A DNA stretch of 64,000 bases from Planctomycetota bacterium. GTDB lineage: Bacteria > Planctomycetota > UBA8108 > SXIK01. The notes beneath the pieces are model-generated. The model was not told the origin of the DNA. It saw nothing but the letters and a program-made list of their open reading frames with translations, and made no database searches. Position numbers and translations under genes: made by a program. The DNA lies in contig OZ244999.1 of NCBI GenBank assembly GCA_965223265.1, forward strand, positions 9,088,001 through 9,152,000, written 5' to 3'. Of the stretch, positions 640 to 57,137 are shown piece by piece; positions within the stretch are counted from its first letter, which is position 1, and each line of letters begins with the position of its first letter.

Positions 640-1568
640 GAGCCTCTCGTGTGCTCACCGAAGCGAGACGCAGCTCGCGACAGTGCTCTCTTGCACTCGT
701 GGCGGCGGTTCTGTTGATTGGCGTCGCTGTTGAATCGTCGAGTTCTGATGCCGAGATTGGTGACCTCGTCAAACGTCGCGCCGAGGCACCGATGCTACGT
801 CGTGTCGAGCGTCCAGAATTGGCGAAAGCGGAGCTGCTCTTTCATTCAATACTGAGCCAAGGTTGGAGCGCTCAAGTTAGTCGTCTTTGCGCGGAACTCG
901 ACCTGAACATCATGAGAGTTCAGCAACACGGCGAAGGTTTTCTAGTCGTCGAAGAAGACGAGAGTCGTCGAGAGGGTCGTGGCCTCTTTGTTTTTCGCAG
1001 CACGGCAACTGAGCCGGTTTTCTTGCAGGCGCCTCACGCGTTTTTTGATCTTCGCACCGACGAAGTCGCGACACGGATGTTTCTTCGTACTCGCTGTGCG
1101 GTCGCAGCTTGGAATACGTGTCGGAGAGATGCGCGCGTTGTCGGGTCACAGCGCGTGGCGGATCTGTGCCGTCTCGACGCAACGTACTGGCAGGCGTTGA
1201 CAAGAGCCTTTGCACGCGCCTACCGGAGAGGCACGGTGGTGCAATTGCATGGATTCAGTCCCAGCCAGCGTTCAACGGTCGAAGCGAAACAGTATGAGTT
1301 GATTTTGAGCCGAGGAACGCGCTCTGGACATGAGGATCTGCTTGGAGTGAAAGCCTGCTTCGGAGAGAAAGTGCGGCTGCGCACCGCTGTCTTTCCCGTC
1401 GACGTTGAGGAACTTGGAGGGACGCGCAACGTTCAAGGGCGACTGCTCCGGAGCGTCGGAACAGGTTTTGTCCACGTCGAGATGAGTCCGAACGCCCGGA
1501 AACGCTTGATCACAGACGACGCACTCCTCGAGTGTTTCGCGCGATGCCTCATGGAGGTCGCAAGGTGA
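636..1568 (+). CDS. Secreted Zn-dependent amidohydrolase related to poly-gamma-glutamate hydrolase (PghP-like) / N-formylglutamate amidohydrolase fold
   Basis: N-terminal hydrophobic signal (LALVAAVLLIGVAV). Motifs QAPH..D..T, VQLHGF, N.QGR and VHVEMS parallel the APHGG/SLHG/QLE motifs of PGA hydrolases. Coupled to the capB-like operon. Confidence 0.55.
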   Translation: MRASRVLTEARRSSRQCSLALVAAVLLIGVAVESSSSDAEIGDLVKRRAEAPMLRRVERPELAKAELLFHSILSQGWSAQVSRLCAELDLNIMRVQQHGEGFLVVEEDESRREGRGLFVFRSTATEPVFLQAPHAFFDLRTDEVATRMFLRTRCAVAAWNTCRRDARVVGSQRVADLCRLDATYWQALTRAFARAYRRGTVVQLHGFSPSQRSTVEAKQYELILSRGTRSGHEDLLGVKACFGEKVRLRTAVFPVDVEELGGTRNVQGRLLRSVGTGFVHVEMSPNARKRLITDDALLECFARCLMEVAR

Positions 1569-4500
1569 GGCGTGGCAGCGGGGGTATCGCACTCTTCTGC
1601 TTGATTGCGCTTGCGCGCCTCTATGGCGATGACTCCATCCGTATCGGAGACGGTTTGGATACGTCTCGATTTCCTACACGGTGGGACAACGTCGAGGGTG
1701 CGCCGTGGCTGGTTGGAGGGCCCTCTCCGAAGTGGGACGCTTCGCTGCGATTTCACGTGTTCCGCCTGCGCCCACATGAGGTCGTCGTCCTTCATGTCCC
1801 GATCGACCGGCTGTTACGTGTGGTTTTCCCAGGTATCACGCAACGATCGCACATCGAAGTCACGATCGATGGTGGCTCAGGGATGGAGATCCCGCAAGCA
1901 GGCGTGCAAGGTGACGATGGCTCGTGGTTCTTTCCGACTCGACGCTTTGGCAGTCATCTCTTCAGGTTGAGGAGTACGGACAACAAGAGTCGAAATGTCG
2001 CTGTGTTTGTAGGACGCGCGGATACCACTTTCACTCGACAGCTTGCTATGGGATCGTCGACGCTCGGTAGCGACCCGGTGCGCCTGCGTCGCGAAGGAGA
2101 GCTGATCGGTCGACGGTATTGGCGTCTTGGTCCAGGTAAGCCGATTCGTGTGAGGGTGCAAGGTGGTGGAGAGCTGAGTCTGCTCACGCGTTTCGAGTTT
2201 CCGCAATCTGAGTCGAGTCGCCAACAGTCCTACCGCATTTCCATCGAAGGTGCTGAAGATCCCAACGGGTTCGAAGTGCAGACTGTCCCTGACTCGGTTC
2301 CCACGTGGGTTGACGGTCGTCCTGTCTGCGTCGGCACGTCAAAGGTCACTCGATTTCTTGTGAACTCCTCGGTTCGAGAGATCACGCTGAGAGCGAGTCG
2401 AAACGTCTGGTGTCGATTGTTTCGGTCTGACGATTCGGTCTATTTCGCTGCGGCGAACCGGTCGCAGCACAGTCGACCTTCCGATCTCACGTCGTTGTCC
2501 CTTGGGGACGCCCCTTCTGTTGAGTCCGTTGGCAGCATCAGCGAGAGCTTTCGGTTTGCGAGTGTCCCGGCGACGGTTTTCGAGGCGATCCGTGGGGCTG
2601 AGCCGGCGGACCTACAGATTGCCGCAGCGTACTTCAGGGCGATGGCGACCTCCTTTGCCGTTGACGCGGACAGTCGTCGTCTGGCACGTTCCTGGTATGA
2701 ACGGCTGACAAGGCGGCGTCATCATTTGCCGCGTCACATGGCTGCGGGACGACAGATCGACTGGCGCTCGTACGTGATCCGAAACGCGCGCCCCGCGGGT
2801 GACGAATCGACGTCTACCAAAGTCGCCAAAGAGCAGTTCGCCGCGGCACTCACAAGTCTTGGGAGCGGAGCTTTTGCCGTTGTCCCCGAGACTCAAGCCA
2901 GGGCGGACGAGTATCATGTCGGTGCTCGTGATACAGGGGTTTGGCTGCGCTTAGTAGCCCGACAGGAGTCTCAAGGCGCGGAGTTCTGGCTACAGGCGGA
3001 TGACCAACCTCCCGTGCTCATTCGCTGCTCCACTCGCTTGCCGGCGAGGTGGCAGCGGACGTCGACGTCATTTGACGCAGCGGCGTCCCTCGTCGTGCAT
3101 GGCAATGGTCGGTGGAATCCGCTCGATATCCACGCTGCGCTCAGTCAGTACCAGCGTCCACACGCTTTCGTCGAGGTGTGGCACGGCGAGTATTTCTGCG
3201 TCGCAGGCGTGCGAACGATCAAGTTGTGGCGAGACGAAGGCGCTGCTCCAGTCGCCGTCTCCGTGCAGTCACGATCTGGGGCACCCATCGTGCCAACAGA
3301 GTCGGAGTTTCTTGACGAGCTGGAGAAGTGGAGAAGGAATGCCCCGCCAGGGGAGAGCTTGCTGCCGTATCTGCAGCGTTTGTGGGCGGCGCGCGAAAGG
3401 AACATCTCAGACGAGTCAACTGCTTCAGCCGGTGCCTTGAACGAAGTTCTTGCTTGGATTGACGCAAGCTGCGACGACGACGTCGGGGGCGTCCACGTCA
3501 ATCCACCGAGGAAGTACGTCTTTTCGGACATCGACCATTCGAGCTCCGAGGAGATCGAGTCTAACGCGATGGCTGCGGAGCAGACTGGGGACTGGCTGCG
3601 AGCACTCGAGCATTGGACCGATGCGTTCCGGCAGGCCGACCCCGTGCGTCGGCGACGAATCGACCTGGCACGGCTGAGATGTCTTTTGGAATTGGGAGAA
3701 CATTGGTTCGCGGAAGAGCAGATGCTAGGAATCGTACAATCGTCACGAGATTTCGTGCTGCGTGACGCGGTGAGGAACCGCTTGCTTGACCACGTCCGGG
3801 CATCCGGGAACGTGCGAAAAGAGCATCGACTGATCGCCTCCTTTCTGTGCCGAAGTAGTGACACCGATCTCGTCTCACGAATGGTCGAATTGAGCGCCGA
3901 GCGCGGAGCGACTCGACGAGCGCTGTCGCTCGGCCTAATTCTCCCCGCATGGAAGCAGCCCGTCGAAATCTTACTGAGGTCTGCCTACGAAGAACAGTGG
4001 TGGGACACCTTCGAGGCATTTCTACCCCTGCTTGAAAGCGAGAGCGCATCGTATTGGCGGGGAATCAGACTCGCCACGCAGGGGGCGTACGAGGGTGCGA
4101 TCGACCGCCTAAATCAGGGAGGTCCGCGTGGGCAAGAGTTGGCGAGCTTCGTGAGCTCTGCTCTCGCTGTCAGACGCAGCCTCAACGCCACCGATTTGGA
4201 GACACGTGTCCGTGGAGTGGGGCAATGGTTGAAACTCGAAGCCAGTCGTCCGGGTCCTCGACGTTGGCGCAGCGCCAGTGACTTGATTGCCGAGTTCGCC
4301 TCCAGTTGTGTTATCGAAACTCTGGACCAGCGCGTCCGAACGCTCTGGTTCGTCGCTGACTCGGACAGGAAGGTCAAGTTGCAAGTGTTCGGCCCGACAC
4401 GCCTGAGGGTCCGGTCGCGACGATTGTACGGAGTCGAACGAACCGATGCGGAGGATAGTTGGCTCACAGTGGACGACGGATCGAAGCGGCGAGTCTTCCC

Positions 4501-50803: not shown

Positions 50804-53155
50804 ATGAGACTCATGTCGATTCGGTCGATGCGTCCGCTGCTTCTATGTTTCCTTCCTTCGATCTTAAGTGGGGTCGCGTTCGCCGAAGAGCGTCGCATCA
50901 CAAATGCCGCGCACGTTGTCTTTCTGATCGGCGAGCGTGAGTATGATACTCGTCGCACTCTCCCGGCGTTCGCCGCCGATGAACTCATTTCGCGCGGTCT
51001 GCGCTGTACTTTTGTGCACGCGGATCCGGATGACCCAAACCAGTTTCCTGGGATCGCCGCGGTCGCTGATGCCGACTTGGTGTTTGTCAGCGTCAGACGG
51101 AGAACGCCGCCGATCCCTCAGTTGGCGTTTCTGCGTCAACATTTGGCCGCTGGGAAGCCGCTCGTGGGAATCCGTACAGCGAGTCATGCGTGGGATGCTC
51201 CACCGCCGCCCGGGCACGACCGTTGGGAACGCTTTGATCGCGAGGTTTTCGGTATGCACTACCAGCGACACTACGGCAACAAGCCGCCGGAGGATCCGCC
51301 GTCGTTGATTCGTGTTGCCTCAGCGGCGACCGATCATCCGATTCTCAAGGGCGTGCGCCGGGATGAGTTTCCTGTAACGTCCCATCTTTACCGCAATCGA
51401 GATCCGGGTGCGCAAACGACGACGTTGATGACCGGATGGGTTCCAGATCGTGGCGAACGCGAGCCGGTCGCGTGGACGAACGCGTTCAACGGTGCGCGCG
51501 TGTTTTACACGTCGCTTGGCGATCCCGAGGACCTGCGGCGTCAAGCGGTACGCCTCCTGCTTGTCAACGCCGTATATTGGGCACTCGGTGAGCCTTCGCC
51601 TGGCACGCTCTTGAGTGCCGCCGTGCCCGACGCCATCGAACTTTCGCTACGGCGGCGTGACGTCCTCACCGGAGAGGTGCAGATGACGAAGGAGCGCGTT
51701 GATCCCGTGCGGGTGGGTATCGTTGCCATCGATATGTGGAATTGGCACTGGTGCAAAACCTCGGCGGCGCGCGTCGGTGCGTTGGTGCCGCGCATGAATC
51801 GCGTCTTTGAGGCGGCGCGTCACCTCGGGATGCAGGTTTTCTTGTGTCCAACGGACGCTGTAGAAGCGTACGTGGGTACGCCGCAGCGCGAGATCGTTTT
51901 TGCCATGCCGCGCCATGCCATGCCCGATCCTGTCGACGTCAACTGTCCGCGCCCTCGCGACGGTGGTGGTTGCACTTGCGGCGTCGAGCGCTGCAAGGGA
52001 AACTACGGCTGGGACGCGATGCATCCTGACCTGATCATAGGTAGTCGCGATCTCATGCCGAACGACCCTGAGGTCCTCTACTCGATCTGTCAACAGCGGG
52101 GCATCACACATCTTATCTACACCGGTGTTCATACTCAGGTCTGCGTGCTCAACAAGTCAGTAGGTGTACGTCGTATGAAGGCAATAGGCCTCGAGTGCAT
52201 TCTGGCACGCGATCTAACCGATGCGCACGGAGTCTATCAGCCCGATGAAGGTTTCACTCCAGACGACCTGACTGCCGAGGTGATCGAGCACTTCGAGAAA
52301 CATCTGGTGGCGACCGTCGACCTTGGCGACGAGATGAGGAACGCCGGGTTCTGGGACGATTCCGTGCGAATCGATCCTGTTCGATTCGCGCCGTGGGGAA
52401 AGCGAGAGCGGCCCCACCTCTTCGAGAAGGAAGTAGTCGTGACGCTCACAGATCCTCTCCACGAGGGTGCGGAGATTCGTTATACACTCGACGACAGCGA
52501 TCCGCATGACGACTCACAACTCTACGAGCAGCCGCTCCAATTGAGCGCCAGCCAGACGGTGCGAGCGGCTTCCTTTATCGGCGACCGACAGCTCAACGAC
52601 GTCTCTGAAGGCCATTTCGTCCGGTTGGGCTCCTCGCCTCCTGCGCCCGATATTCACCTCTCAGAGATCGAGCCGCTGCGAGTCGCGGGCCCTGGCCACT
52701 CACCGTCCGCAACGCGGCATCGTTTCTCTGGGCTCTCGAATCCGCCGCAGAAAGATCGCAGCAACCGCAAGGCAGCACTGCGGATGCGCGGGCAGACGTA
52801 CGCGCGGGGAATGGGAGTTCATGCGCCGAACCAGCTGCTCTACCGCGTCGAGCCGCACTACGAGAGGTTCGTTGCGCTCGCGGGAATCGATGAAGAGATT
52901 CTTGAGTACAACAACGCGTCGAATCTCGGGCGGTTTCCTAGCGTCATTTTTCGCGTTTACATCGACGGCAAGCTGCGCGCCGAGAGCCCGGTGATGAAAA
53001 TCTCGGAAGAACCATGGCGTTTCGACGTGTCGATTCGAAAGGGCAGTCGGCAGATCAGCTTGGTCGCCACAGACGCGGGCGACGGGAACAAACTCGATCT
53101 GGCGAACTGGGCGAACGCCGGATTCGTGATCAGGAAGGCCGCGGCCGGTCGGTGA
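50804..53155 (+). CDS. Secreted ThuA-like + isochorismatase-like + Fn3-like + NPCBM multidomain protein
   Basis: Signal peptide. ThuA-like region ([21 protein letters not shown]). Cysteine-hydrolase motifs AIDMW and [15 protein letters not shown] (chitobiase/Fn3-associated). RGMGVHA ...ANWANA (NPCBM). Confidence 0.8.
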
Positions 53156-53160
53156 TGGTG

Positions 53161-53466
53161 GCAGAGGCGGAAGCAGAGGCGGAAGCAGAGGCGGAAGCAG
53201 AGGCGGAAGCAGAGGCGGAATCAGAGACAGAATCAGAGACAGAATCAGAGACAGAATCAGAGACAGAATCAGAGACAGAATCAGAGACAGAATCAGAGAC
53301 AGAATCAGAGACAGAATCAGAGACAGAAGCAGAGACAGAAGCAGAGACAGAAGCAGAGACAGAAGCAGAGACAGAAGCAGAGACAGAAGCAGAGACAGAA
53401 GCAGAGACAGAAGCAGAGACAGAAGCAGAGACAGAAGCAGAGACAGAAGCAGAGACAGAAGCAGAG
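53161..53466. repeat. 12-bp tandem array (hexamer period), 25.5 units in three homogeneous blocks
   Basis: 5x GCAGAGGCGGAA, 9x TCAGAGACAGAA, 11x GCAGAGACAGAA, then GCAGAG, read directly. Confidence 0.97.
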
Positions 53467-53492
53467 AAGAGGTGTGCCGCCAAGGGGCGTTT

Positions 53493-53666
53493 GCGGCGGC
53501 GGTATTGTCGAGCGTAACGGAAGCAGAGCCGGCCTCAAGGGTGCCCTCGCTGCGCTCGGCGCTTCGCGCCCTTGACCCCGGCTCTGCTTCCGTTGGCGGG
53601 GGTGAAACGCCGCCGCGTCGGGCGTGCGGCGAGAGTTTCACTCAACCGGTTGACCGGAGTCTTCTC
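53493..53666 (+). ncRNA. Putative structured leader (copy 1) upstream of a four-helix-bundle gene
   Basis: Perfect 17-bp stem 53516-53532/53578-53594 encloses a 41-nt core (53535-53575) identical to 54844-54884 on the minus strand. Outer pairing GCGGCGGCGGT/ACGCCGCCGC. Confidence 0.6.
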
Positions 53667-53990
53667 ATGGGCTTTCTCGCTTTGGATCACTCTGTTGGTA
53701 TCGTTCGTCAGTTGCGTCCGCTTGTCTCGCGTGTGCGTCGTCACGACTCGAAGCTTGCCGCTCAGCTGCGCGACGCGGGGTCCTCCGTGGCGCTGAATTT
53801 GGGCGAGGGCAATCGGCGCTCTGGTCGTGACCGCGGGCATCTCTGGCGTGTTGCTTCAGGCAGTGCCGAAGAGGTGCGTACGGCGCTCCGTGTTGCTGAG
53901 GCTTGGGGCTACGTCGATGCGCAGGAGACAGCTCCGGTGCTTGCGGACATCGACGAGCTGCAGGCGATGCTTTGGAAGCTGACGCGCTGA
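53667..53990 (+). CDS. Four-helix-bundle protein (23S rRNA IVP / Avd family), 107 aa
   Basis: QLRDAGSSVALNLGEG.RR...R.HLWRVASGSAEEV.TAL.VA..WGY. ATG 53667 preceded by GGAG. Confidence 0.88.
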   Translation: MGFLALDHSVGIVRQLRPLVSRVRRHDSKLAAQLRDAGSSVALNLGEGNRRSGRDRGHLWRVASGSAEEVRTALRVAEAWGYVDAQETAPVLADIDELQAMLWKLTR

Positions 53991-54002
53991 GCTTGGGGTT
54001 TT

Positions 54003-54035
54003 GGGCCCGTCGTGCTTTTTTGGCGCGGCGGGTTT
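54003..54035 (+). terminator. Hairpin just 3' of four-helix-bundle gene 1
   Basis: GGGCCCGTCGTGC pairs with GCGCGGCGGGTTT (G-U pairs allowed), ~12 nt after the stop. Confidence 0.45.
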
Positions 54036-54271
54036 GAGGCGGAACCGGAGGCAGAGACAGACCCGACAGTTGCATAAGTTTTCGCAGGAAGGGCTCAGAA
54101 ACCCTTTCCCTGAGGTTCGATCGGCAGTTGAAGGACGTCGCGGCGGACCTCACGTTTGGTGAGGTTGACGGTCTGCCGTGTTCCCCCCACGCCCACGCAC
54201 ACCCACACGCAAACTCTCACTCAATCGCAATCGCGCACGGTCTTAAGGCGTGTCTTTTTTGCAACGTTGGG

Positions 54272-54387
54272 GTCAGAGTCAGAATCAGAGACGGATGACG
54301 GATAGAGATACAGAACCAGATGACAGAGTCAGCGACGGAGACAGAATCAGAGACGAGATGACAGAGTCGGAATCAGATCCAGAAGTC
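54272..54387. repeat. Degenerate hexamer-period repeat (TCAGAG/ACAGAA-like)
   Basis: GTCAGAGTCAGAATCAGAGACGGATGACGGATAGAGATACAGAACC..., the same repeat family as 53161-53466. Confidence 0.75.
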
Positions 54388-54397
54388 GCCGTGAGCA

Positions 54398-54423
54398 GCG
54401 CCCGCTACGAAAGTAGCGGGCGC
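54398..54423 (-). terminator. Hairpin just 3' of four-helix-bundle gene 2
   Basis: Perfect 11-bp stem GCGCCCGCTAC-GAAA-GTAGCGGGCGC, 13 nt after the stop. Confidence 0.55.
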
Positions 54424-54436
54424 ATGGGCGTCTCGC

Positions 54437-54760
54437 TCAGCGCGTGAGGCCGCTGAGAAGAGCCAGGAGTCGATCGAGGGTCTGGAGAGGCACTGAGACT
54501 TCTTCGGCCTTGAGATCGCCCCAGGCCACAGAGAGCTGCAGGGCAGTCTCGACCTCCCGGGCACTGCCGCGCGCAACGCGGTAGAGGTGCAGCCGGTCTT
54601 TCCCAGCGCGCTCGGCACCCTCGGAGAGATTGAGCGCGACCGAAGAAGCAGCCCGCCGAATCTGCCGATGGAGATCGGGATCAAGCCTCCGAAGCCGCAG
54701 CAGTGGAGCCCGCAAATCGCGAATCAAACCGAGACTGACATCGAGAGCGATGAAGCGCAT
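54437..54760 (-). CDS. Four-helix-bundle protein (23S rRNA IVP / Avd family), 107 aa
   Basis: QIRRAASSVALNLSEG.ER.GKDR.HLYRVARGSAREV.TAL.L..AWG. ATG 54760 preceded by GGAGG. Confidence 0.88.
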   Translation of the reverse strand: MRFIALDVSLGLIRDLRAPLLRLRRLDPDLHRQIRRAASSVALNLSEGAERAGKDRLHLYRVARGSAREVETALQLSVAWGDLKAEEVSVPLQTLDRLLALLSGLTR

Positions 54761-54925
54761 GAGAGACCTCCGAAACGGTGAGTCAAGAGCCCGCCGCATC
54801 CGGGCGGCGGTACTCCACCCCCCAACGCGGAGCGGAGGAACTGTCAAGGGCGCGAAGCGCCGAGCGCAGCGAGGGCACCCTTGACAGTTCTGAGCACCGC
54901 GTAAGCTCGACAAGACCGCCGCCGT
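54761..54925 (-). ncRNA. Putative structured leader (copy 2) upstream of a four-helix-bundle gene
   Basis: Same 41-nt core (54844-54884), extended by a different stem (GAACTG/CAGTTC, ACGCGG/CCGCGT). Shares CGGCGGCGGT[A/C]TTGTCGAGC with copy 1. Confidence 0.6.
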
Positions 54926-54938
54926 ACGGTGACCCCAA

Positions 54939-55082
54939 CCCACACGGACTCCCACACGGACTCCCACACCCACGGGAACGGCCGACGCGCACGCCGACAA
55001 GGCCGGACGGCACACGGCGTGTGCCTGCCACGTTGAAGAGGCGCGCACCCACTCCCACACGGACTCCCCCTCCCCCTCCCAC
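54939..55082. repeat. Short 12-bp repeats CCCACACGGACT and C/A-rich hexamers
   Basis: CCCACACGGACT at 54939, 54951 and 55054. Confidence 0.7.
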
Positions 55083-55125
55083 GCAACCGCGAACCGAGTC
55101 CCAGGCATCAAAACGAGCGTCCCTC

Positions 55126-55695
55126 TCACCCTTCGATCTCGGCGCGCAGCCACGCCCGTGCCATGTACCAGTCGGCTTCGGCGGTGCGCTGTGAGACGTT
55201 GAGAGCTGTGGCGACTTCCGGCATGCTCAGGCCGCCGAAGAAGCGGAGCTCGACCACCCGGCTTTTGCGCTCGTCCATTTCGGCGAGCTTCTTGAGCGCG
55301 TCATCGAGCGCGATGAGATCGACCTCCTCCTCGCGATCCTGGGACGACTCAGCCTTGCCGATCGTGATGCGTTGCCACTCCCCACCGCGCTTCTGCGCCC
55401 CTCGGCGGCGGGCATGGTCGATCAGCACTTGGCGCATCACTTTGGCGGCGATGGCCAGAAAGTGAGCGCGACTCTCCCAATCGACCTGATCCTGATCGAT
55501 CACGCGCAGGTAAGCTTCGTGGACGAGTGCCGTCGGCTGCAGCGTGTGGGCGACGCGCTCCCGCCGCAATTGCCCTTGCGCCAGTCGTCGCAGCTCGTCG
55601 TAGACGAGCGGCATGAGCTGCCGCATGGCATCGCCCTCACCCGAACGCGCGCGTTGGAGAAGTCGGGTCACTTCTGCGGGGTCGAGTTCCGTCAC
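55126..55695 (-). CDS. ECF sigma-70 factor, TIGR02999 (planctomycete) type
   Basis: LMPLVYDELRRLA, HTLQPTALVHEAYLR, R.HFLAIAA..MRQVLIDHAR, VVELRFFGGL, W..ARAWL. Confidence 0.93.
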   Translation of the reverse strand: MTELDPAEVTRLLQRARSGEGDAMRQLMPLVYDELRRLAQGQLRRERVAHTLQPTALVHEAYLRVIDQDQVDWESRAHFLAIAAKVMRQVLIDHARRRGAQKRGGEWQRITIGKAESSQDREEEVDLIALDDALKKLAEMDERKSRVVELRFFGGLSMPEVATALNVSQRTAEADWYMARAWLRAEIEG

Positions 55696-55781
55696 GAGCA
55701 GTCGTTACCTCGAGTAACTGCTACTGTGCAACTCTCCGTACCCAGTTGCTCGCGACGACATATCAAGCGGCTCGGACGGAA

Positions 55782-57137
55782 CTATCCCATCAGCTCCGTG
55801 ATCGGCGTCGGATCGCTCGCGATGTGCACAGGGCGGCCGAGAGGAGTGTAGAGGATCTTGTCCGGGTTGATCCCGAGTTTGCGGTAGATCGTCGACACGA
55901 AATTCTCGGGCGACAACACCCGGTCCGCGGCCGAGTAGCCGTGCTTGTCGGTCGAGCCAACGATCTGTCCGCCCGGAGTTCCGCCGCCTGCGAAGAGGAC
56001 GCTCATGGCGTTGGACCAGTGATCACGTCCTGCTTTTTTGCGCCCCGGGATGAGGGAAATCTTCGGCGTCCGGCCGAATTCGCCGAGCATGACGATGAGC
56101 GTCCGTTCGAGAAGCCCTCGGACTTCAAGGTCTTCGATGAGCGCTGACAACGCCGTGTCGAGGCGTGGCACTTGGACGCGATTGCGGTCGAAGATCTCAC
56201 TGTGGTGATCCCAGCCATCGTTCTCGATGGTGATGAAGGGGACACCGGCTTCGACAAGACGTCGAGCGAGCAGGGTCTGTTGACCGACTTCGGTGCGGCC
56301 GTATCGATCACGTACACTGTCCGGCTCGCTGTGAACGTCGAACGCCTTCTGAGCTTCGGGCGATGTGATGAGCTGATGGCCTTGGGCGTAGAACTCATCC
56401 ATGGCGACGACCGGATCGGCTGCTGACTCATCGTTGATTCGCAGCAGCTCGTCGACCTCCTGCCGAATCTCCTGACGGCGCAGAAAACGCTCGCCGCCGA
56501 GACCGCGTGGCAAGACGACGTCACGGACGCGAAAATCGGACTTGTTCGGATCGCCGCCGACAACGAATGGAGCGTACTTTGCGCCGAGAAAGTTGGGTCC
56601 GCCGGAGCGCGTCATCGTTGGCAGCGAGAAGTATCCAGGCATGCCCTCGGGCGCCGTCCGTTCGTGAGCCGTGATCGATCCGAGGCTGGGATGGAAACTG
56701 ACGAACGCGCCACACGATACCGGTATGCGCGTCGGCATGCCCGTCATCATGTAGTGGTTGCCGGCGCCATGGTTGCCGTGGTTGTGGCGAATCGAGCGAA
56801 CCACCGCGAGCTTGTCAGCCATCGCGGCGAGCCGCGGCAGCGTCTCGGAGAAGCGAACCCCAGGGATTTTCGTCGGGATGGAGCCGATCTCGCCGCGGAT
56901 CTCGCTCGGAGCGTCGGGCTTGGGGTCGAAGGTCTCAAAGTGAGACGGTCCGCCGTCCAGGAAGTAGAGAATGCAACTGTCGGCCTGCCGCTCGCTTGGG
57001 TCGCCAGCCGCCCCTTGCGCTCTGAGGGCGTTGACCAAGCCCCCGCCACCGAAAAACGATACGCCACCGAAGTAGCCGCCGACTCCGAGCTTGAGACAGG
57101 ATCGACGGGTCATTCCATCGCAATTGCGACTTGCCAT
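55782..57137 (-). CDS. DUF1501 domain protein
   Basis: TRR..LK.G, FLDGGPSHFETFDPKP, LLARRLVEAGVPF, GWDHH, GEFGRTP, GRDHW. Confidence 0.92.
   Translation of the reverse strand: MASRNCDGMTRRSCLKLGVGGYFGGVSFFGGGGLVNALRAQGAAGDPSERQADSCILYFLDGGPSHFETFDPKPDAPSEIRGEIGSIPTKIPGVRFSETLPRLAAMADKLAVVRSIRHNHGNHGAGNHYMMTGMPTRIPVSCGAFVSFHPSLGSITAHERTAPEGMPGYFSLPTMTRSGGPNFLGAKYAPFVVGGDPNKSDFRVRDVVLPRGLGGERFLRRQEIRQEVDELLRINDESAADPVVAMDEFYAQGHQLITSPEAQKAFDVHSEPDSVRDRYGRTEVGQQTLLARRLVEAGVPFITIENDGWDHHSEIFDRNRVQVPRLDTALSALIEDLEVRGLLERTLIVMLGEFGRTPKISLIPGRKKAGRDHWSNAMSVLFAGGGTPGGQIVGSTDKHGYSAADRVLSPENFVSTIYRKLGINPDKILYTPLGRPVHIASDPTPITELMG

Follow-up and report, generated by a model that had tools for sequence, protein, structure and literature searches.

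Positions 53,161 to 55,082 of the 64,000-nt window analysed here, a stretch of contig OZ244999.1 from a Planctomycetota bacterium (assembly GCA_965223265.1), carry two convergent cassettes, A and B, in each of which a structured 5' leader precedes a gene for a four-helix-bundle protein of the PF05635 family. We found that the leader contains a strongly covarying hairpin, that this hairpin accompanies almost all genes of the cassette family in the genome, and that short-period tandem arrays adjoin most of the cassettes. Together, these features tentatively point to small selfish passengers related to the intervening sequences (IVS) of 23S rRNA, in which the leader may act as an RNA and the encoded protein may be its ligand.

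The layout given in an earlier note on this stretch was recovered in full, with all of its elements at their places. A tandem array with a period of 12 (53161..53467; two hexamers, units GCAGAGGCGGAA, TCAGAGACAGAA and GCAGAGACAGAA; 25.6 copies with 98% matches according to Tandem Repeats Finder) begins 6 nt past the stop codon of the upstream gene, and arrays of this type also precede the other A1-type copies. The leader of cassette A (53493..53666, + strand), which is defined by its fold, by covariation and by a covariance-model match at 53514-53593, is followed by open reading frame (ORF) A (53667..53990, +; 107 amino acids (aa), subtype A1), with a Shine-Dalgarno GGAG about 10 nt ahead of the ATG, and by a GC-rich 3' hairpin and TTTG (54004..54033, +). 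Cassette B is read from the minus strand and consists of a leader at 54761..54935 (covariance-model match 54825-54905), ORF B at 54437..54760 (107 aa, subtype B1) and a GC-rich 3' hairpin, GCGCCCGCTAC-TTTC-GTAGCGGGCGC, at 54398..54423. Both ORFs encode PF05635/TIGR02436 four-helix-bundle proteins and have the end ACGCGCTGAGC across the stop codon in common, as had been noted. The 3' hairpins, which had been placed 12-13 nt after the stop, are present and begin 13-15 nt past it, close to the stated distance. All of the interval 53150-55090 recurs at other genomic sites, but the adjoining genes are single copy, indicating that the layout is more than chance. No ORF for a transposase, an integrase or a reverse transcriptase lies within 53161-55082, in agreement with the earlier description, and no Rfam family, rRNA included, matched the interval 52500-56000 at E <= 1.

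The leaders are indeed structured. The minimum free energy of the sense strand is -92.9 kcal/mol for leader A (z -5.1) and -83.5 kcal/mol for leader B (z -3.8), none of 200 shuffles folded as well, and the antisense strands are 8-15 kcal/mol less stable. In the 5' element of ~150 nt, helix P1 closes the structure, P2 is a long helix with interruptions, a bulge protrudes on one side and the small hairpin P3 forms the apex. In cassette A, P1 is formed by 53493-53501 paired with 53608-53616 and the interrupted P2/P3 hairpin spans 53514-53595 (both +); a possible alternative hairpin would be formed with the 3' strand of P1. Cassette B has the same P1/P2/P3 architecture, and its outer stems differ from those of A but compensate. 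The leader stretch reported as identical over 41 nt in both cassettes is real, and its length is actually 42 nt (TCAAGGG...CCCTTGAC; 53535-53576 (+) and 54843-54884 (-)). This core includes the inner stem of P2 (TCAAGGG/CCCTTGA) together with the invariant bulge on one side, TGCCCTCGCTGCGCTCGG, and the small hairpin at the apex. The 41-mer, which is offset from the core by one base, occurs in 14 exact copies in the genome and represents the tip of an interrupted hairpin of ~80 nt. Overall, the invariant bulge measures 18-21 nt and reads GUGCCCUCGCUNCGCUCGG(CG).

Two alignments were used to assess covariation. The first contained 30 leaders, 26 from this genome and four from genome G007, and revealed P1 as GCGGCGG/CCGCCGC and P2 with 11 compensatory pairs and the 41-mer at its tip. 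The second tested P2/P3 on 22 sequences from several phyla. Here, standard pairs were found in 86.7% of the cells compared to 73.6 +/- 1.0% in shuffled alignments and 36-47% with the partners slid, and 15 of 25 pairs changed on both sides, a value reached by none of 500 shuffles. One position retained a U-G pair in 12 of the 22 rows, which, together with the greater stability of the sense strand, favours a sense-strand fold. Judged from these alignments, covariation of the leader hairpin is strong and the element is structured and conserved. A pseudoknot between the bulge and a G-rich 3' junction, considered by eye, was dropped, since variation in this junction is not compensated.

A covariance model of the hairpin had 43 matches in the genome, of which 37 are located upstream of a family gene on the same strand. 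The hairpin lies 61-82 nt upstream in 35 of the 36 full-length genes, and four of the six orphan matches are decayed cassettes. The earlier note had raised the possibility that the 41-mer is a generic REP-like (repetitive extragenic palindrome) repeat unlinked to these genes. Given the 37 of 43 matches upstream of family genes, this is not the case within the genome. The expectation that the 41-mer precedes family genes thus held here; it did not extend to other phyla, in which the hairpin also occurs without a PF05635 gene. The sole full-length family gene lacking the hairpin is copy c13 (G000:C1:5176239-5176559), whose leader shows a clean deletion from just past GTCGATCGT to the Shine-Dalgarno region, with a (GCACTC)n array abutting the remainder.

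The proteins encoded by ORF A and ORF B are 53% identical (57/107) and hence clearly diverged, as described before; their coding sequences are ~55% identical in nucleotides, although the 42-nt leader core is identical. With scores of 53.8 and 51 bits for PF05635 (curated cut-off 33.8) and of 56.6 and 52.1 bits for TIGR02436 (curated cut-off 24), both belong to the proposed family of IVS proteins and Avd, the latter being a component of diversity-generating retroelements (DGRs). The AlphaFold2 model of protein A has four helices and a pLDDT (predicted local distance difference test) of 96.8. Its best matches in the Protein Data Bank, according to Foldseek, are the stand-alone S23-family proteins 2RLD and 2GSC (template modelling (TM) score 0.80-0.90, 17-28% identity), followed by Avd in DGR ribonucleoprotein structures (TM 0.83-0.87, 10-11% identity), and phmmer likewise matched 2gsc (E 3.6e-5). 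Neither protein matched a PADLOC defence-system model. Within the two clades of the family, A and B, the ratio of nonsynonymous to synonymous divergence (dN/dS) amounts to 0.138 and 0.132, respectively, at a synonymous divergence (dS) of ~0.5; between the clades, dS is ~1.9. A dN/dS of 0.13-0.14 at this depth suggests that the proteins were kept functional over long periods, and the substitution pattern indicates that the family is under purifying selection. In the phylum, PF05635 was found in 132 of 251 sampled genomes, frequently in multiple copies. For Xcc0516, a protein of the PF05635 family, the relevant passage of PMC4990558 describes a homopentameric ring.

The genome, a single contig of 9.18 Mb with 60.8% G+C, contains 41 family loci as determined by tblastn, of which 36 are full length. 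They fall into the two clades A and B, each with subclades at 80-99% nucleotide identity, and include seven convergent A/B pairs. Six of these are A1-B1, and this ~1.9-kb pair recurs six times as a unit with ~92% identity. Near-identical copies (98-99% nucleotide identity) are found at distant loci with unrelated flanking genes, and decayed copies are present as well, both truncated ones and remnants with internal deletions. Copy number across relatives ranges from 0 to 41: seven of 31 relatives had a match, none of the three genomes of the same family had one, and up to 16 matches were found in another family. In draft genomes, the family copies are situated at contig ends. The genes flanking the window locus had only paralogue-level matches (30-54% identity) in five relatives, and no orthologous locus was found there. 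These data show that the cassettes are dispersed multi-copy units, in support of the interpretation in the earlier note.

The cassettes are flanked by arrays of period 6 or 12, as Tandem Repeats Finder confirmed. Merging of the short-period arrays gave 1494 for the genome as a whole, and in 729 of these the period is divisible by six. An array is located within 100 bp upstream of the leader in 27 of the 36 full-length cassettes and on at least one side in 33 of the 36, compared to ~5% of non-coding bases that near an array by a crude estimate with a crude ORF filter; the suggested link with simple repeats was therefore upheld. At least 20 7-mers common to both flanks were detected in direct orientation in 15 of 36 cassettes, in inverted orientation in 0/36 and in displaced controls in 0/36, and one copy has a duplicated flank of ~110 nt. 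The ordinary PF05635 genes of the phylum, represented by the 30 best-scoring loci with one per genome (L073-L102), are enclosed by short arrays of period 7-9, one immediately ahead of the start codon and one immediately past the stop codon, the units after the gene being reverse complements of those before it. The two flanks had at least five inverted 7-mers in common in 24 of 29 analysable ordinary loci versus 4 of 26 controls displaced by 500 bp. In sequence terms, the link with arrays is thus family-wide across the phylum sample, with inverted arrays of 7-9 nt elsewhere and direct hexamer arrays here. A search of open-access papers and preprints on PF05635, IVS or Avd yielded no description of tandem arrays as a family-wide flank feature.

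Some further observations concern the arrays. The commonest hexamer units in the genome are ACACGC, ACGCCC and AAACGC, and more than 90% of these microsatellite-like arrays are far from any cassette. The ordinary PF05635 genes L073-L102 form compact inserts of ~0.5 kb between host genes, and their array units differ by locus; by eye, the neighbours of L073 and L095 resemble cas1/cas2-type genes. The motif GTACCGG(A/C)CAC, found at the junction of GA-type with CA-type arrays, was considered as an insertion landmark and rejected, with only 3 of 31 occurrences within 1.2 kb of a cassette.

The hairpin is not restricted to this genome. Counts obtained with the covariance model across genomes, for which 30-150 candidates were scored per genome, are lower bounds. 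With samples of 151 genomes each, the model had matches in six genomes of the phylum of the window and in six of the phylum of genome G268. The six of the window's phylum include G135 (at least 29 matches, ~37 bits) and G034, which gave weak matches with no PF05635 ORF nearby and were treated as unrelated. In at least five other genomes, a PF05635 ORF follows the hairpin, namely at all loci checked in G021 (2/2), G121 (2/2), G287 (1/1) and G270 (4/4), as well as at the four loci read in G007 (4/4). All five tested genomes with the element encode PF05635 somewhere, which counts for little because the family is common. In addition, the 21-base pattern of the invariant bulge was searched in one genome per species and yielded 63 loci, 25 of which have the full hairpin context. 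Eleven of these 25 originate from one Planctomycetota metagenome-assembled genome (MAG) and were not counted as independent because of a possible overlap with G007. Four others belong to G270, an unclassified MAG, and have a PF05635-like ORF 89-141 nt later and hexamer arrays before the hairpin. The P1 sequence is wholly different between lineages yet still complementary, as seen by eye and without a tool count. No Rfam 15 family matched the element in 12 loci from other phyla, the only strong match being an unrelated ALIL pseudoknot, and a search of open-access papers and preprints on PF05635, IVS, Avd or planctomycete hexanucleotide repeats yielded no description of the leader motif. Going by this distribution of sequences, the element is much older than this genome.

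The search also retrieved related contexts. Loci from Desulfoluna and other Desulfolunaceae (L108, L115, L126, L137, L148, L154, L164 and L165) represent a different dispersed repeat with the same invariant 21-mer. In this repeat, a GGCGC-NNN-GCGCC hairpin is located 5' of the 21-mer rather than 3', i.e. in permuted order, and an ORF starts 36-57 nt downstream; L131, L157 and L153 are similar cases. An assignment of these repeats to integron attC sites was discarded since the core sites do not fit by eye. At L105, L118 and L145 (from a beta-proteobacterium, Acidobacteriota and Vicinamibacterales), the stand-alone hairpin is found directly past the stop of a conserved ORF of ~150 aa, which ends in ...RRQFDALMKW/G... 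and has no Pfam match. That this context is shared across phyla suggests carriage on a mobile element.

In the reading that we tentatively favour, the cassettes are selfish passengers of the IVS type. Each cassette would be transcribed as one unit, and the 5' element would work as an RNA, either as an operator or as a processing site. Its most likely ligand would be the four-helix-bundle oligomer of the cassette itself, given that Avd, which has this fold, is in contact with RNA in solved DGR ribonucleoproteins. It is plausible that protein and leader form an RNA-protein unit. Rather than by a dedicated transposase, new copies might be generated when the host recombines or converts the microsatellite-like arrays on their flanks, and recombination through these arrays might remove copies as well as add them.

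Several findings weigh against this reading. A simple scan found no sigma-70-type promoter before either leader and called neither 3' hairpin an intrinsic terminator. The G-U evidence for an RNA is equally compatible with a single-stranded DNA form. Movement of the cassettes is deduced from their distribution, and 1361 of the 1494 arrays lie more than 3.5 kb from any cassette (133 within 3.5 kb), which means that the arrays do not depend on cassettes. Moreover, no PF05635 ORF lies near any of the ten loci, out of the 25 with full hairpin context, that stem from Acidobacteriota, a beta-proteobacterium and a Hydrogenedentota MAG (0/10), and none of nine stand-alone covariance-model loci, seven of which come from the phylum of G268, has one within ~1.5 kb (0/9). 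With no such gene in cis, the function of the hairpin cannot be only autoregulation of a PF05635 gene. Finally, the hairpin serves as an integration site. An element of 2,669 bp is present in six copies with at least 99.9% identity (G000:C1:7186470-7189138, corresponding to positions 971-3639 of locus L013, and at 2581251, 6779131, 8597854, 8835401 and 8979589). It contains the gene of a 702-aa large serine recombinase, which has Resolvase, Recombinase and Zn-ribbon domains, as well as an ORF of 149 aa that lacks a Pfam match. Each of the six copies interrupts the left arm of a B-type leader hairpin at the GT of GTCAAGGG, and at least four different left flanks indicate separate, repeated integrations. 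At least one recombinase thus recognises the hairpin as DNA. The occurrence of the element is confined to B-type leaders, in which the GT is present; A-type leaders read CCTCAAGGG instead. It uses the hairpin as a target and is not regarded as the mover of the cassettes, and the other 35 cassette loci have no recombinase gene inside or adjoining. The mobilisation in trans suggested by the earlier note could not be substantiated; the only recombinase found to touch the cassettes uses the hairpin for its own integration.

The same data can be read in terms of a DNA-level mobile element, which we regard as improbable. The hairpin would then be a recombination site or a transposon end, in duplex or single-stranded form, and the cassettes or the A/B pair would be moved in trans by a serine recombinase, an HUH/Y1 enzyme or an integron-like integrase encoded elsewhere, with the two leaders of a convergent pair acting as imperfect terminal inverted repeats of ~190 bp. 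Paired leaders are inverted and 73-81% identical over ~85-230 nt, and the ~1.9-kb A1-B1 pair recurs as a unit in six copies, as would suit such an element. The flanking direct repeats, however, correspond to array units or long duplications and not to short target-site duplications, and defined ends were not recognised. The constant insertion of the serine-recombinase element at one GT likewise shows that the hairpin can be read as DNA, but this enzyme treats it as a target, and only in B-type leaders, while the other 35 loci have no recombinase gene in or beside them. The single Y1_Tnp match in the genome is weak (27.3 bits, G000:C1:4206881-4207093) and far from the cassettes. The invariant 21-mer is also part of a different family of dispersed repeats, known here from Desulfolunaceae and other groups, which fits a DNA-level role. 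Against such a role stand the distance and orientation of the hairpin relative to the ribosome-binding site, which are fixed across lineages, and the sense-strand bias of the fold.

Selection on the proteins (dN/dS ~0.13 at dS ~0.5 within clades, dS ~1.9 between them) would also be in keeping with a domesticated family of host-beneficial, small RNA- or DNA-binding proteins, active for example in defence or RNA metabolism, with a riboswitch-like or protein-binding leader. Such genes would have multiplied by ordinary duplication, and their seat in repeat-rich 'junkyards' would be accidental. The conservation of the leader across phyla, the occurrence of PF05635 in 132 of 251 genomes of the phylum and, as far as the passage in question goes, the report of PF05635 in cas loci (PMC3936711) agree with this explanation. 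We nevertheless consider it unlikely in view of copy numbers between 0 and 41 in related genomes, copies of 98-99% identity that lie far apart and next to unrelated genes, copies that are truncated or have internal deletions, the position of copies at contig ends in draft genomes and an array enrichment far over the crude background. A still much less probable explanation is retro-mobility, in which the Avd-like protein would bind its own leader RNA and recruit a reverse transcriptase, the cDNA would integrate into simple repeats and the arrays would be products of polymerase slippage. The transcript-like shape of the unit, with leader, ORF and 3' hairpin, and the fold of Avd, the partner of the reverse transcriptase in DGRs, are consistent with this scenario. 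The genome also has four reverse-transcriptase ORFs of ~450 aa (PF00078; G000:C1 at 1895554, 3424405, 3516453 and 5913461), whose identical scores of 127.7 bits would fit a retroelement present in several copies, for example a group II intron. None of these genes, at 1.90, 3.42, 3.52 and 5.91 Mb, adjoins a cassette, the nearest cassette being ~147 kb away. Moreover, the proteins are nearer to stand-alone S23-family proteins (17-28% identity) than to Avd (10-11%), arrays are common away from cassettes too, and no template/variable repeat pair was seen at the cassettes, with no search aimed at such repeats.

Beyond the selfish-passenger reading, the stand-alone hairpins of other phyla and the integration of a serine-recombinase element into the hairpin imply a role that goes further than private regulation of the PF05635 gene. 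It is possible, though we hold this with considerable doubt, that P1-P2-P3 with its GUGCCCUCGCUNCGCUCGG bulge represents a class of structured RNAs that is both new and ancient, occurs in at least four phyla and acts as a partner of PF05635 oligomers in a self-propagating or insulating RNA-protein unit, and that the bracketing arrays are a signature of the mechanism rather than bystanders. To our knowledge, PF05635 proteins have no known function outside DGRs, and an RNA-protein unit, if true, would provide the IVS-protein/Avd family with a general one. Irrespective of this, a covarying element tied to a PF05635 gene is a concrete candidate ligand for binding and processing work, and the family-wide short-period array flanks point to a shared way of inserting, insulating or spreading PF05635 genes. 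With ~40 copies ranging from near-identical pairs to decayed remnants, the genome offers a natural system for the multiplication of a gene without a recombinase, and in the hairpin, a minimal 2.67-kb serine-recombinase element has a defined integration target that is present in multiple copies.

The remaining features of the locus are repeats between and beside the cassettes. A short GA-rich stretch with hexamer period (54037..54070) lies 3' of cassette A, and a separate repeated module of ~215 bp (54062..54280), with ~35-54 genomic copies, is found between the cassettes. This module, which is flipped in orientation relative to the window in two of six other convergent pairs, may be a small independent repeat element. 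Tandem Repeats Finder further detected a period-6 array at 54188-54211 and, downstream of cassette B, imperfect arrays that are rich in GA and have a hexamer period (54272..54368). The upstream flank of cassette B (54939..55082) is composed of a period-12 array of CCCACACGGACT (54939-54969, 2.6 copies), a REP-like palindromic unit (about 54975-55050, more than 100 genomic copies) and a CTCCCC array of period 6 (55064-55080), both arrays as called by Tandem Repeats Finder. The REP-like unit contains the palindrome GGCACACGNCGTGTGCC and is frequently found in tandem together with 12-mer arrays; the weak Y1_Tnp match might be its transposase.

A comparison with known systems helps to place the cassettes. 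Like the hairpin, REP palindromes and their mosaic arrangements (bacterial interspersed mosaic elements, BIMEs) as well as MITEs (miniature inverted-repeat transposable elements) are multi-copy, palindromic, intergenic and without a transposase of their own. The hairpin differs from them in its fixed distance to a protein-coding gene, its invariant asymmetric bulge and its conservation across phyla, and the true REP-like repeat beside cassette B (more than 100 copies) has a different sequence. A cognate transposase was not identified, the one Y1_Tnp match of the genome being weak. The attC core site of integrons is GTTRRRY; the hairpin stems (GTCAAGG/CCTTGAC, by eye) are unlike it, and the cassettes occur singly or in convergent pairs and not in integron-type arrays.

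Avd has the same four-helix-bundle fold and belongs to the same Pfam family as the cassette proteins (TM 0.83-0.87 to 4DWL, to chains of 8UB7 and to related entries), and it is part of an RNA-protein complex in solved DGR structures, whose entry titles refer to a ribonucleoprotein reverse transcriptase. The cassettes differ from it by an identity of 10-11%, by having no adjacent reverse transcriptase and by being multi-copy genes. Stand-alone PF05635 genes have also been reported in cas loci, 18 in number (Zhang, Doak and Ye 2013, PMC3936711). In the account given there, these are wedged between unrelated genes, as the cassette genes are, and the passage on them makes no mention of flanking repeats or a leader motif. 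As described in that passage, they are located inside operons, whereas the cassettes lie in repeat-rich intergenic islands.

The IVS of 23S rRNA with an S23p/PF05635 ORF have the protein family and the unit size in common with the cassettes. Such IVS occur in Leptospira, Coxiella, Xanthomonas and others. IVS and cassettes are alike in being small, sporadic and apparently selfish units without their own recombinase, and the inverted arrays at ordinary PF05635 loci of the phylum match the stem-enclosed architecture of the IVS as well as the heptamers known from Coxiella. According to the passage on the Coxiella IVS in PMC4990558, GACAGAT heptamers precede the S23p ORF in numbers that vary between strains, so that, on this account, short tandem repeats adjoin the ORF there as they do in the cassettes. 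The differences concern location and architecture. IVS reside in the 23S rRNA gene, whereas the cassettes sit between protein-coding genes; the flanks of IVS are complementary and place the ORF inside a long stem, which RNase III excises, whereas those of the cassettes are direct arrays with hexamer period (inverted flanks 0/36). Further features that set the cassettes apart from IVS are a good Shine-Dalgarno sequence and a conserved 5' hairpin as an element of its own. For the ORF of the Coxiella IVS, decay and absence of translation are argued in the part of PMC4990558 devoted to it; the cassette proteins, in contrast to the decayed ORF described there, bear the marks of purifying selection.

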